Assembly (NCBI GenBank): GCA_951406725.2
Contig: OX597819.1
Span: 109,368,001-109,432,000, forward strand
DNA from: Octopus vulgaris
Taxonomy: Eukaryota
Direction of reading: 5' to 3'
DNA length: 64,000 bases
How positions within the stretch are numbered: the first letter of the stretch is position 1; each line of letters begins with the position of its first letter. This document shows, in pieces, positions 23,932 to 63,619 of this stretch. The notes below the pieces were generated by a model. That model had not been told where the DNA came from, did not search any database, and saw only the letters and a list, made by a program, of their open reading frames with translations. The translations under genes were made by a program, and so were the position numbers.

Positions 23932-24680
23932 CAGGGTCCGTTCGATAAATTGTCACCATTTCATATTTTTAATTTCGCGCATGCGCATTGTTTGTTTTTA
24001 ATTTTGTCTACTACACAGAATAGTAGGGTCAGTGACGCAATTCGCTCTGCCAGGAATTTGGAAACGACATACTGTATTACTTGGAATTCGCACCGGAAGC
24101 TCCAATACGAGCATTTAAGAGTGCTTGGGTGTTAATTTGAGGACAGTGCAATCTGAGGACATGTACCGAGTTTGATAAAAATCAAATATCCAGTCAACAT
24201 CATAGTGTTTGGAGTGATCACTGTTGATGGCGACGTTATGCTTCCATTCCTCTTCCCACACGGCCTCAGGCTCAACACAGAGGCCTACATCAAGCGCCTG
24301 GAAGAGGTAGTGCTGCCCTGGGTCAAGAGTGTGGTTGCTGGAAGATCCTATGTTCGGCAACAGGACTCTGCGCCATGCCACACAAGCAGGAGAACCCAGT
24401 CATGGCCATTAGACAATTTCTGCGACCACATCACCTCTAACATCTGTCCACCTAACTCCCCAGGGTGCAGTTGAGCGAGAGATCAACAAATCTCTTTGTA
24501 ACACCAAAGATGAACTGAAGGCAATGATTATGGTAACATTCATCAATTTAAACAAGGAGACCATCCAGAAGAGTTGCAAGATATTCCGAAGTCGTCTAGA
24601 GGCCGTGGTTGAAGCCAATGGCGATTTTATTGAATAAATTTACTCTTTAGTATTATGTAATTTTGGTAAATATCTGTTAA
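23932..24680 (+). mobile_element. Tc1/mariner relic (maT/DD37D-like), internally deleted
   Basis: ORF 24172-24474 with VFGVITVDG, QQDSAPCH, PPNSP; putative left end cagggtccgttcgataaattgtcacc; right TIR not found. Confidence 0.7.
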
Positions 24681-24699
24681 AATGAGATTCATTTATTCT

Positions 24700-25043
24700 T
24701 TTATTTGTTTCAGTAGTTTGACTGCGGCCATACTGAAGCACCGCTTGTAGTCGAGCAAATCGAGCTGAGGACTTATCCTATCGTTCTCTTTTGCCGAACC
24801 GCTAAGTTACGTGGACGTAAACACACCAGCATTGGTTGTCAAGTAATGTTGGGGGGACAAACACACGCGCGCACACACACATACATATATACGACGGGCT
24901 TCTTTCAGTTTCCGTCTATCAAATCCACTCACAAGGCTTTGGTCGGCCCGAAGCCATACTAGAAGACACTTGCCCAAGGTGCCACACAGTGGGACTGAAC
25001 CCGGAACCATGTGGTTGGCAAACACACAGCCACTCCTCCGCCT
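24700..25043 (-). mobile_element. SINE family A copy
   Basis: head to tail similarity with other copies. Confidence 0.85.
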
Positions 25044-25157
25044 ATTTTTTATTTATTTATCTAGTTTCAGCTCACAAGCTGTGGCCATGCTGGGGCACCG
25101 CCATTTAAAAAATATTCTGGAGATGCCGGGGATCGAACCCGGGGCCTTTCGCATGCA
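25044..25157 (-). pseudogene. chimeric retrocopy: tRNA-Ala(TGC) 3' half, trailer, and LINE 3' tail
   Basis: minus strand TGCATGCGAAAGGCCCCGGGTTCGATCCCCGGCATCTCCA (25157-25118), gaataTTTTTT, then aaatggcggtgccccagcatggccacagcttgtgagctgaaactag matching 63217-63262. Confidence 0.85.
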
Positions 25158-25282
25158 CTATGTTAGTGTTATTTTCATTTTTGCGTAATTTAGACGACAG
25201 TTTATTGGTCAGCTTATCTGTCATAAGTGTGCGTATGTTCACACTTATGTATGTATATATGTATAAGCATCTATCTATCTAC

Positions 25283-56025: not shown

Positions 56026-56446
56026 CAGTAACGACATCACCACAACCACTGCCACCACCACCACCACCACCGCCACCGCCACCAACACCACCATCCCCCC
56101 ACCAACAAGACAGGCCACAACATCAGCAATAACAATAATATCAACATCAACATCATCTGCAATAACGATAATAACTGCAATCTGCAATGCAGAAACAACA
56201 GATATAACACCACCACCACCAACAACAGCAGCAGCAACAGAAATAGCAACAACAGTAACCACAACATCAACAGCAACAACAATAACATCGTTAATAATAA
56301 CAATAAAGATGTGTTTCTCATTTCGTCACAAGGAAAGCAATTTTGAGGAGAGTGGGGTTAGTCAGTTACATCAATCTCAGAACCTGACTTGTACTTTATT
56401 TTATCGAGCCCGAAAATGCGAAATGTGAAGATGACCTCGGCAAGTT

Positions 56447-57258
56447 ATGAAACAAGAACGTAAAGAGCCGGAAGATATGAAACAAAAACGTAAAAATCCG
56501 GAAGATATGAAACAAGAACGTAAAGAGCCAGAAGATACGAAACAAAAACGTAAAAATCCGGAAGATACGAAACAAAAACGTAAAGAGCCGGAAGATACGA
56601 AACAAAAACGTAAAGAGCCTGAAGATACGAAACAAAAACGTAAAGAACCGAAAGATATCAAACAAAAACGTAAAGAGCCGGAAGATACGAAATAAAAACG
56701 TAAAGAACCGAAAGATATCAAACAAAAATGTAAAGAGCCGGAAGATATCAAACAAAAACGTAAAGAGCCTGAAGATACGAAACAAAAGCATAAAGAGCCG
56801 GAAGATACGAAACAAAAACGTAAAGAGCCGGAAGATACGAAACAAAAACGTAAAGAACCGAAAGATATCAAACAAAAACGTAAAGAGCCGGAAGATATGA
56901 AACAAAAACGTAAAGAGCCGGAAGTTACGAAACAAAAACGTAAAGAACCGAAAGATATCAAACAAAAACGTAAAGAGCCTGAAGATACGAAACAAAAACG
57001 TAAAGAGCCGGAAGATACGAAACAAAAACGTAAAGAACCGAAAGATATCAAACAAAAATGTAAAGAGCCGGAAGATACGAAACAAAAACGTAAAGAGCCG
57101 GAAGATACGAAACAAAAACGTAAAGAGCCGGAAGATACGAAACAAAAACGTAAAGAACCGAAAGATATCAAACAAAAACGTAAAGAACCGGAAGATACGA
57201 AACAAAAACGTAAAGATCCGGAAGATACGAAACAAAAACGTAAAGAGCCGGAAGATAT
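56447..57258. repeat. 30-bp minisatellite (about 27 units) expanded inside a SINE family B head
   Basis: unit aaacaaaaacgtaaagagccggaagatacg; SINE sequence continues on both sides (56350-56446 and 57259-57300). Confidence 0.9.
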
Positions 57259-57329
57259 ACCACGTGGCATTTTGTTCGACGTTTTAAAGACTGTTAGTTT
57301 GCAATAACGATAATGATTGCTTCAAATTT

Positions 57330-60403: not shown

Positions 60404-60534
60404 GCATACACACACATGTATGTATGTATGCTTAGATAAAGATAGTTATGCCTGGTTCATAGGGTTACCCAGTGTTTCACGTCCATAAAGCGCTTGGCTT
60501 TACATACATCGCAACAGACTCTAATGGCTGGTGG

Positions 60535-60603
<69 letters not shown>

Positions 60604-60610
<7 letters not shown>

Positions 60611-63286
60611 GAAGAAATTCTAACCACATTAGAACAACACATAGGTGTGCTTCTTATGGGAGACTTCAATCTGCCCAATGTCAGATGGCCCGAGGGCCTT
60701 TCTCTCCCAGGAATGACAAGATGTGAACGAGGACAGGCGAGGTCCCTCCTGAACCTCATCAACACCCTGTACATGGAGCAGGTAATACTCCAACCAACCA
60801 GGGCAGGTAACACACTGGATCTCTGCTTCACAAATGACATGGATCTCATCCATAATGTGAAAGTGACACCGACACTACTCTCGGATCACAACATGATAGA
60901 GCTGACCATGTACGGGCCAAAAGAGAGCACGGACATGCAGCCTACAAGAAACCCTCAAAATCTTTCCAGCTTGAACTACCATAAGGCAAACTGGAAACAA
61001 ATTGAGAAAGAGATCCTCAAACAAAACTGGCCTGAATGTCTCTCCTCGCCAGACATCGATGTGAAACTTCAACAATTCATGTCTGTAATGCAAGCCATAT
61101 GCTACAAATGTGTCCCAGAGAGAAAGGCCACTGTACACAAGAACAAAATCCCCAGAGAGAGGAAAATTTTAATGAGACGGCGTACGAAATTTTCAAATCG
61201 CCTAAACAAACAGATTGAAAGCAGTGAAAAGTCCCACCTAAAAATAAAACTGTTGGAAATCGAAAAATGTCTGCAACTCTCCCATGAAAAAGAAAGAGCA
61301 GACAAAGAAGCGTGGGCTATAGAAAACATAAAATCTAACCCCAGAGCTTTCTACAGGTATGCCAAAGAAACAGCTACAGTGCACTGTAGAATAGGGCCAC
61401 TCCTTGAAAAGGATGGCACACTTACAGGAAAACCAATGAGGGTAAGTGAAATACTGAATGAGCAATTCAAGAGTGTTTTCACTCCACTCCTTGGGCATCT
61501 CCAAATCACCAATCCAACTGACTTTTTTTTTTACCACTGCAGATATAAAATCAGAGGCGGCGACGATAGATTACATCGATATAAAGGAAGACGATGTAAC
61601 CAAGGCTATAGATGAAATGAAAACAGACTCAGCTACTGGCCCCGATGGATTCCCGGCAATCCTCCTAAAAGCATGTAAGAGAGTCCTAGCAAGACCACTG
61701 CAGTTCCTCTTTCAGAGCTTCCTTGCAGCTGGCAAACTTCCAGGAAAACTGAAGGAAGGTAAAATATGCCCCATTCATAAAGGAGGTAGCAGAGCGGAAG
61801 CCAAGAACTATAGACCTATCTCTCTGACCTCACACATCAGCAAGGTCATGGAACGAATAGTCAGAAGGAAGCTGATCACCTTCCTTGAAGAGAATGACTT
61901 GCTGCCCGACACCCAACATGGTTTCCGACCAGGGAGAAGCTGTTTAACTCAGCTCCTACAACACTATGACTGGGTGCTGAAACGGCTGCTCAACCACTCA
62001 AATGTGGAAGTGATATATCTCGACTTTGCAAAGGCCTTTGATAAAGTCGATCATGGAATGATATGTCACAAACTGCGTGATCTCAACATAGTTGGAAAAC
62101 TGGGAGAATGGCTTCATGACTTTCTGAAGGATAGAAGTCAGGTGGTAGTAGCCAATGGGGCCACCTCCATTAACACACAAATAGTGAGCGGTGTTCCGCA
62201 GGGCACTGTTCTGGGACCACTACTGTTCATAATGGCCCTCTCAGACATGCCCTCAGCCACGCAGAGAGCCACGATCACAAGTTATGCAGATGATACAAAA
62301 GTCTCACAGGCAATACAGAACCCTGAGGACACTAAACACCTGCAATGTGAGCTGGACGAAATATACAAGTGGGCTGAAAAGAATAGCATGCAGTTCAATG
62401 CTGGAAAGTTTCAAGCTTTATACTATCAGCATGCAAAACTGAATGCAATACCCAATGAATACACTGGACCCGGAGGGATTGCAATCCCAGAGGCACAATC
62501 AGTGCGTGACCTTGGTATTCACATGAGTGATGACGCGACCTTTCATGTACATGTTGCTAAACTGACAATGAAATGTAGACGGCTGGCTGGATGGATTCTT
62601 AGAACCTTTAGAACAAGAGAACAAGAAACCATGATGGTCCTCTGGAAGACACTTGTCCTAAGCCACTTTGACTATTGCTCTCAGCTATGGTCACCATCCA
62701 GTGTCAAGTTGATCACAGAACTTGAGGCGATCCAACGAAGCTACACAAAGAAGATAGCCTCTATGCAGAATGTAAGCTACTGGGAAAGACTCAAGAGATT
62801 AAAATTATATTCCCTGGAGCGTAGGCGGGAAAGATATGCCATAATATACATCTGGAAGATCCTGGAGGGAAGTGTCCTGAACTTTGGCATCGAGAGTTAC
62901 GCAAATGCCAGAACTGGGCGCCACTGCGTGGTGCCTAGGACTCCAAACCTGCCATCAAGATGTAGGACAAGATTCTGTGATAGCCTGGGCTTCCGAGGCC
63001 CACAGCTCTTCAATATCCTCCCGAAGAACCTGAGAGACCTGCATGGGGTGGATACAGATGTCTTTAAAATGAAGCTGGATCTCTTCCTGTCAGGTGTCCC
63101 AGATGAACCAACTTCACGGCAGGAGGGGCAGATGAGGGCAGCTGCATCGAACTCTCTCATGCACCAAATAGCAGTTGCTAGAAAGCCTCCATGAAGTGAA
63201 ACCAAGTAGCAACACCAAATGGCGGTGCCCCAGCATGGCCACAGCTCATAAGCTGAAACTAGAATCAATCAATCAATCAATCAATC
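60604..63286 (+). mobile_element. CR1-group LINE, 5'-truncated ORF2 (end of APE plus RT), one frameshift
   Basis: MGDFN, NTLDL, SDH; GPDG, YRPISLTS, QHGF, YLDFAKAFD, GVPQG, YADD; frameshift near poly-T 61523-61532; stop 63194; (AATC)n tail. Confidence 0.95.
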
Positions 63287-63619
63287 ATATATATATATAT
63301 AGTGTTTAAGAAAATCACTACAATATAAGTTTGGAAGTTTAAACACAAGTAAAACGAAACCAAATGATGATTAATGATCAACATTTTTAAAACTTTGTAT
63401 TTGAATATTTCGGATTAAAAAACTATTTATCAAGTAAACGGAGAATGATTTAACTCCGTCTGAACAGTTCAAAATAAGTAATTAGTAATTTTTCAAACGT
63501 TTACATCCAGAAAAAAAACACGTCAATGAGAGAAATATTGTTTCGCATAATCTCACAGCAGTATTACAAACAAATAATAATTTATATCAACGCACGATCC
63601 TAGTGTATTCATTTATTCT

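Follow-up and report, generated by a model that had tools for sequence, protein, structure and literature searches.

A probable retrocopy in Octopus vulgaris that joins a nascent alanine pre-tRNA to a minimal LINE 3' end, and a genome-wide class of pre-tRNA fusions

Template switching is the proposed origin of SINE tails (PMC4824008, PMC4758252, PMC5786205, PMC4476161). In the parts of this literature available to us, it has so far been a hypothesis drawn from finished SINE families or from analogy with U6 chimeras. tRNA-headed SINEs with LINE tails share their layout, a head followed by a LINE tail, with the fusions described here (PMC4824008, PMC4758252, PMC5786205). As characterized in the available parts of those sources, however, true SINEs amplify from a master copy, retain both promoter boxes (A and B) and lack a terminator ahead of the tail, unlike our fusions. 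In the U6/L2 and U6/SINE chimeras of platypus and lizard (Mon-1, AnolisSINE2), an oligo-U Pol III RNA precedes a SINE or a short LINE end in the same sense, often with 5' truncation and with a stringent LINE involved, and the same holds for our fusions; the chimeras also have short target-site duplications (TSDs) and have been ascribed to template switching, as may be the case for ours (PMC4476161, available parts). In platypus U6/L2, a truncated U6 and a short L2 are flanked by TSDs of 1-9 bp (PMC4476161, available parts). By analogy, the fusion class described here would work like the U6/L2 chimeras. It differs from them in that the captured RNAs include, besides U6, pre-tRNAs from 16 anticodon classes together with their leaders, trailers and introns, in that the LINE junction is one fixed base, and in that the host is an invertebrate.

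Other described systems are similar in part. Human U6/L1 chimeras also have a variable T-run at the junction and both parts in the same orientation, but their L1 is variably truncated with no preferred junction, and they are explained by RtcB ligation through a cyclic phosphate (PMC6789731, available parts); in our case the junction is fixed and the partner RNA would end in a 3'-OH. In primate tRNA/LINE-1 insertions, tRNA sequence, often partial, was inserted together with a LINE 3' end, as it was here, but the 21 loci reported in the accessible text are mostly antisense halves of nt 1-37 ascribed to twin priming (bioRxiv 10.1101/2025.02.02.635956), whereas our copies are sense, 3'-complete with trailer, and full length in 20 of 39 cases. 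A Dictyostelium 5S rRNA retropseudogene (Szafranski 2004, via PMC6740152) has been read as SINE-like and combines a Pol III RNA with a LINE by template jumping; by its title, that report concerns one 5S case, while the present class is genome-wide and derives from tRNA precursors. In a search covering titles and the beginnings of abstracts, with subscription papers, Repbase reports and supplements outside its scope, we found no published description of sense pre-tRNA/LINE-tail fusions as a class.

The locus lies in a stretch of 64,000 nucleotides of Octopus vulgaris DNA (the window), to which all coordinates refer. The focal chimera, a Pol III RNA copy placed 5' of a retroelement 3' end in the same orientation, runs on the minus strand from 25157 to 25046 and forms an inserted unit of 112 bp (25046-25157). 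The features are as follows.

24500..24691, plus strand: left half of a host repeat, which ends a short open reading frame; uninterrupted into the right half in paralogs
24692..25045, minus strand: full-length SINE whose head is tRNA-like and whose double-hairpin tail is a related one; it probably inserted earlier and served as the target
25042..25045, minus strand: 3' copy of the 4-bp repeat ATAG; these bases double as nt 1-4 of the adjoining SINE
25046..25059, minus strand: (ATAA)n-type terminal repeat of the LINE subfamily, 14 nt, assigned from sequence; similar tails occur at other fusions
25060..25106, minus strand: minimal LINE 3' end, 47 nt, 44/47 identical to 63217-63263
25107..25117, minus strand: Pol III 3' trailer GAATA (25117-25113) and T6 terminator run (25112-25107); 12 exact genome matches
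25118..25157, minus strand: copy of tRNA-Ala(TGC), positions 34-73, with 0/40 mismatches to gene L007
25158..25161, minus strand: 5' copy of the 4-bp direct repeat ATAG, likely a TSD
25160..25206, plus strand: right half of the host repeat, from paralog comparison
60446..63288, plus strand: LINE copy, extending over at least these positions, in which Pfam identifies endonuclease and reverse transcriptase (RT) frames; 3' end at 63217-63263, and (AATC)n

We consider it likely that the focal element derives from a nascent alanine pre-tRNA, retrocopied and joined to a minimal LINE 3' end in one retrotransposition event with an RT template jump. The first-pass annotation had read a tRNA-Ala match from TGC at position 34 to the 3' end and on through GAATA-T6, and this reading held without a mismatch against L007, an intact tRNA-Ala(TGC) gene that scores 73.7 bits on the Rfam tRNA model. 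In the focal copy, box B is present, box A is absent, and A37 reads as A; its terminal CCA is C71-C72-A73, with no added CCA. Neither ARAGORN nor Rfam called a tRNA in the focal fragment, as expected because the piece is only 40 nt long. The join to the last 46 nt of the window LINE, followed by an ATAA tail, was also confirmed and is here refined to 47 nt. All three differences between the focal tail and 63217-63263 fall within a predicted hairpin loop, and the focal 47 nt recur unchanged in the tails of L005 and L085. For the tail, folding predicts a pair of hairpins next to each other (-18 kcal/mol, z -2.3 to -2.6), with the tRNA/tail junction 3 nt 5' of the first predicted stem. A 22-nt tail motif occurs twice in the window, against 0.00 occurrences expected by chance.

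The window LINE encodes an AP-type endonuclease (PF14529, E 3e-09) and an RT (PF00078, E 9e-31), and has a structured 3' end with a short tandem repeat and no poly(A). Judging by sequence, it belongs to the family that donated the focal tail but represents a different loop variant. From protein motifs, we take the tail-donor LINE to be a member of the CR1 group. A frameshift separates the endonuclease and RT frames in this copy. The last 300 nt of the LINE are identical at four of 30 sampled loci (L143, L146, L148 and L152), which suggests a young family. The double-hairpin layout is common to four tail types (L002, L010, L015, window 24695-24750, 63217-63263), with paired changes in the second stem. 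Elsewhere in the window, a long tandem repeat at about 56400-57320 has several frames open.

A genome search with the focal fragment returned 35 matches, of which 30 were viewed at first. The exact Ala 3' end with trailer has 12 genome matches, all joined to retroelement pieces: six to terminal tails of four kinds, four to SINE 5' ends and two to internal SINE positions; five of the 12 copies are full length. An Ala-TGC gene with this exact trailer, which the first-pass annotation had expected, was absent from the assembly among these 12 matches and 23 looser-pattern places (four weak matches were not viewed). The nearest gene is L007, which has a trailer one base off, the same body, and a 4-nt leader common to several full-length copies; on this resemblance it is likely the parent of the Ala fusions or the parent's close paralog. 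The Glu trailer identified an exact parent: its 11 matches consist of 10 fusions, spread over 9 contigs, and one intact, unfused gene with unique flanks. The Glu fusions have T4-T7, compared with T10 in the parent gene, and the upstream sequence that full copies have in common with the parent is a leader of about 4-8 nt. A cluster of five tRNA-Ala genes at G000:C20:71.06-71.07 Mb has differing trailers (L014, L016, L018, L021 and L028). At L015, an insert of several parts lies within a duplication of about 15 bp; it combines a short AT-rich piece, a fragment of a tRNA, a tail of a fourth type and a portion of another repeat, and possibly arose through multiple jumps.

The search for other tRNA fragments joined to this tail, suggested in the first-pass annotation, was productive. 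A pattern of T-arm, T-run and tail gave 46 matches, compared with 0 for the reversed-pattern control, and 39 of them are recognizable tRNAs of 16 anticodon classes, with the acceptor stem intact in 20 of the 39; two heads and five segmental duplicates of one head are not recognizable as tRNAs. Every fusion found keeps a T-run before the tail, ranging from T4 to T12 across the 46 matches (the pattern needed at least four), with T4 in 13 of the 46. When tRNA sequence followed by the first bases of a SINE was used as the pattern, 22 matches were obtained, 20 of which are tRNAs at the exact SINE 5' end by manual reading and ARAGORN. U6 is joined at the same tail point in 19 matches. These fusion counts (39, 20 and 19) are lower bounds owing to the use of exact patterns; exact tail matches total 7,429. 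No amplified tRNA fusion was seen among the fusions found. The fusions are independent events rather than descendants of a master copy, the exception being the group of five, which arose by segmental duplication.

The U6 fusions (L125, L138 and 17 further) often carry 1-6 extra bases after the T-run; CT recurs there in 8 of the 19 and may be templated by a U6 gene. The heads of L085, L089, L107, L116 and the L091 group have a box-B-like motif and a T-run and were captured like pre-tRNAs. They had no Rfam match at E 0.01, relaxed ARAGORN calls on some of them were not trusted, and they may reveal unannotated Pol III RNAs. L114, whose partner is a SINE, is a copy of Lys-TTT that seems to contain an intron of about 21 nt.

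Introns are kept in five copies (L043, L056, L114, L117 and L120), and CCA follows base 73 in 0/46 tail fusions. All eight copies with ANN anticodons read A34 as A, and the focal copy and every spanning Ala copy shown read A37 as A, none having G or T. Inosine at 34 would read as G, and at position 37, I and m1I read as G and T, respectively (PMC4446420, available parts). The leaders, introns, and unedited A34 and A37 indicate that the templates were nascent precursors.

The junction itself was assessed in three unbiased sets, namely the Ala trailer, the Glu trailer and 30 unselected tails (the first 30 tail matches on contig 1), as the T-run/tail, tRNA/SINE and U6 patterns preset its position. 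Among the unselected tails, 19/30 run on into LINE sequence and 11/30 start no more than one base from the focal junction. These 11 hot-spot tails comprise two U6 fusions, one cut-off SINE head with a T-run, five plain tails and three copies of one SINE family. All fusions with this tail family in the Ala and Glu trailer-defined sets join at the hot spot (6/6, p 0.006), and a longer LINE body is present in none of the 22 fusions of these two sets. A one-base junction implies either that the RT leaves the LINE RNA there or that the RNA ends there. For a fungal LINE, less strict junction preferences are described in the available parts of PMC2104539. The SINE family at the hot spot (L134, L139 and L147) has a tRNA-like head about 170 nt 5' of the tail, and its tail begins at about the focal junction. 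A ribozyme as the cause of the fixed junction was considered and dropped, as nothing in Rfam came close to threshold over 63050-63300.

Duplications of at least 6 bp surround the whole fusion in 14/39 cases against 7.05 expected (7 of 5000 permutations); at 7 bp the excess was not significant (5 against 2.5 expected; 475 of 5000), nor was it at 8 bp. The tRNA+SINE fusions have a duplication in 7/14 cases against 3.9 expected, a comparison made without a p value, and the focal direct repeat is just 4 bp. Elements of this kind would be expected to have short TSDs, given the platypus U6/L2 range. In the tRNA+SINE fusions, the divergence of the tRNA part correlates with that of the SINE part (Spearman 0.89, n=14, with some references being copies rather than genes), which supports co-insertion in the SINE-partner set.

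We tallied the 5' ends of 31 truncated copies (Ala 10, Glu 15, Asp 3, Gly 2 and Asn 1) against a gene or full copy, leaving aside truncated copies that lack a suitable reference and three full-length Asp copies with indels or mismatches. Starts within the anticodon loop were found in 4/31 against 3.9 expected. One copy, the focal one, starts at 34, and one (L026) starts at 32-34, its start being ambiguous in a T-rich flank. The other six truncated Ala copies with the exact trailer start at 38, 39, 40, 42, 44 and 58. Starts at 38-44 occur in 6/10 Ala copies (L006, L010, L011, L012, L015 and L191) compared with 1/15 Glu copies (p about 0.007-0.03 depending on the set, in a post hoc window), and in a further comparison, starts in 34-44 occur in 6/7 Ala and 1/8 Glu copies (p 0.01, or 0.026 without the focal copy; again a post hoc window). 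The Ala clustering at 38-44 suggests that truncation may not be wholly random. The 5' ends scatter, and the start at 34 looks incidental.

At the insertion site, the host repeat runs uninterrupted from its left into its right half in 11/11 paralogs examined, and the composite of SINE and chimera sits at a single point of this repeat with a 2-bp AT overlap. The host repeat, which is presumably Tc1/mariner-like, has no Pfam family above cut-off in four short frames. Contigs of four public runs over 24350-25262 are mostly repeat paralogs, with 188,000-275,000 records each. The adjoining SINE departs from the majority of 34 copies in 23/292 columns, in addition to deletions, whereas the focal tRNA part and tail show 0 differences in 87 nt from their natural relatives (p about 0.004-0.02). 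Because the SINE has diverged and the chimera has not, it is likely that the adjoining SINE came first and the 112-bp chimera followed with a 4-bp duplication.

Several other origins of the fusions have to be weighed against a template jump. If the focal copy were a 5'-truncated member of an existing tRNA-Ala SINE family, an outcome the first-pass annotation had set against its own proposal, relatives with the same architecture should be found. This tail family is indeed present on three other Ala copies (L004, L005 and L011), but their trailer, T number, junction base and tail subfamily are different; the remaining same-trailer copies bear unrelated partners, which argues against one multi-copy family. 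The exact search gave no further copies with an identical junction, so that this origin is extremely improbable. Since the junctions lie at T-runs and these elements prefer AT-rich sites, LINE tails or SINEs might instead have inserted downstream of the terminators in tRNA genes or pseudogenes that were already there. We give very little credence to this idea, as the parent's upstream flank is missing beyond the short leader, the Glu gene yielded its fusions and is still free, the trailer is repeated after the tail in only 2/39 fusions (both low-complexity), and the ages of the two parts correlate. A third proposal is that a LINE RNA, cleaved at one fixed position, was attached by an RtcB-type ligase to the 3' end of the pre-tRNA, with the ligated RNA retrotransposed afterwards. 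Human U6/L1 RNAs have been demonstrated to be joined by RtcB, which needs a 2',3'-cyclic phosphate and a 5'-OH (PMC6789731, available parts). A one-base junction, shared by the U6 fusions, is what a defined cut RNA end would give, and for tail fusions the DNA end-products of a jump and of prior RNA ligation are alike. However, pre-tRNA 3' ends are UUU-OH (PMC5737608, available parts), and in the accessible experiments RtcB gave no full-length product with a 5'-triphosphate and ligated U6-OH substrates poorly or not at all (PMC6789731). SINE RNAs, as primary Pol III transcripts, would start at ATAG with a triphosphate, and 20 fusions join at the exact 5' end of full SINEs. By exact patterns, moreover, tRNA fusions are at least as numerous as U6 fusions, and many U6 junctions have extra bases; end-to-end jumping with untemplated bases is known for R2 (cited in PMC6740152, available parts). 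We favor a template jump because the UUU-OH ends of pre-tRNAs and the 20 joins at the exact SINE start would make poor RtcB substrates, and we regard ligation first as decidedly unlikely.

Two further explanations concern the focal copy in particular. The first-pass annotation attributed the start at 34, within the same jump, to a modified wobble base that stopped the RT or to copying of an anticodon-cleaved half. The match does begin exactly at T34, that of L026 begins close by if its ambiguous end is accepted, and the Ala truncations cluster near the anticodon arm, just 3' of the m1I37 site. Yet starts in the anticodon loop are as frequent as expected, and T34 itself was copied in the focal element. 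When a modified base blocks an RT, synthesis usually ends one base 3' of it. The template was also read as unmodified, A37 giving A where the modified forms would give G or T, and the copy has the trailer and lacks CCA, unlike mature-tRNA halves. For the Ala-specific m1I37, methylation is reported mostly after trailer removal in the available parts of PMC4446420. We therefore consider this cause quite improbable; the broader claim of a LINE RT switching to a pre-tRNA stands, with a pre-tRNA copy, a LINE end and an RT jump being most likely, and the cause given for the stop at 34 is not supported. The other explanation is that the RT copied a whole SINE RNA, then LINE RNA, then pre-tRNA, so that 24692-25159 was inserted at once. 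It would account for the whole composite lying at one point of the host repeat with the 2-bp overlap and for the chimera tail abutting the first base of the SINE, and tripartite chimeras are described in the available parts of PMC2104539. A same-sense SINE head lies within 150 nt in 3/46 fusions and in 0/30 plain tails (p 0.27). Such a triple event would, on the other hand, require two untemplated bases that recreate ATAG by chance, and the unequal divergence of SINE and chimera is off the trend of co-inserted pairs; we judge it unlikely.

The template-jump reading can be set out stepwise. A LINE protein would prime on the terminal repeat of its own RNA at an AT-rich nick, copy the two terminal hairpins and leave the template at the fixed base just 5' of them, either by stalling or at a cut RNA end. 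The cDNA end would then jump onto a nascent Pol III transcript at its oligo-U 3' terminus; the junction at a T-run is observed, and the jump is what we infer from it. Ordinary 5' truncation, with which the observed scatter is consistent, would end the copying before it is complete, in this case at position 34, and the product was likely inserted 4 bp inside the 5' end of the older SINE. On our best reading, many pre-tRNAs and U6 were captured in this way, and full-length SINE RNAs underwent the same process at their 5' ends.

Compared with a tRNA-derived SINE, the focal element has no set of copies sharing its head, junction and tail, lacks box A and has T6 before the tail. From this make-up we predict that the copy is inert and regard it as a by-product of the proposed route of SINE birth rather than a live intermediate; it is a dead end because box A is absent and the terminator is kept. 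The first-pass annotation had presented it as a SINE-birth intermediate without the A box. That box is indeed missing, but with the T6 terminator before its tail the element could not become a SINE. Being itself dead and truncated, the focal copy is of value because it draws attention to the class, with its fixed junction. With about even confidence, we read the whole as a population-scale fossil record of step one of SINE birth, in which the RT of a stringent LINE jumps from a fixed base at the edge of the minimal recognition element to the oligo-U ends of nascent transcripts and yields dozens of independent full-length fusions, the terminator would act as the bottleneck to amplification, T4 copies would be latent proto-SINEs, and the Ala 5' ends may record a block just 3' of position 37. 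Unamplified products are present here by the dozen and can be traced to single tRNA genes via leader and trailer. With this class one can test at which points the RT jumps, what kinds of RNA end it accepts, and why fusions seldom give rise to families; the last we ascribe to the terminator that is carried over.
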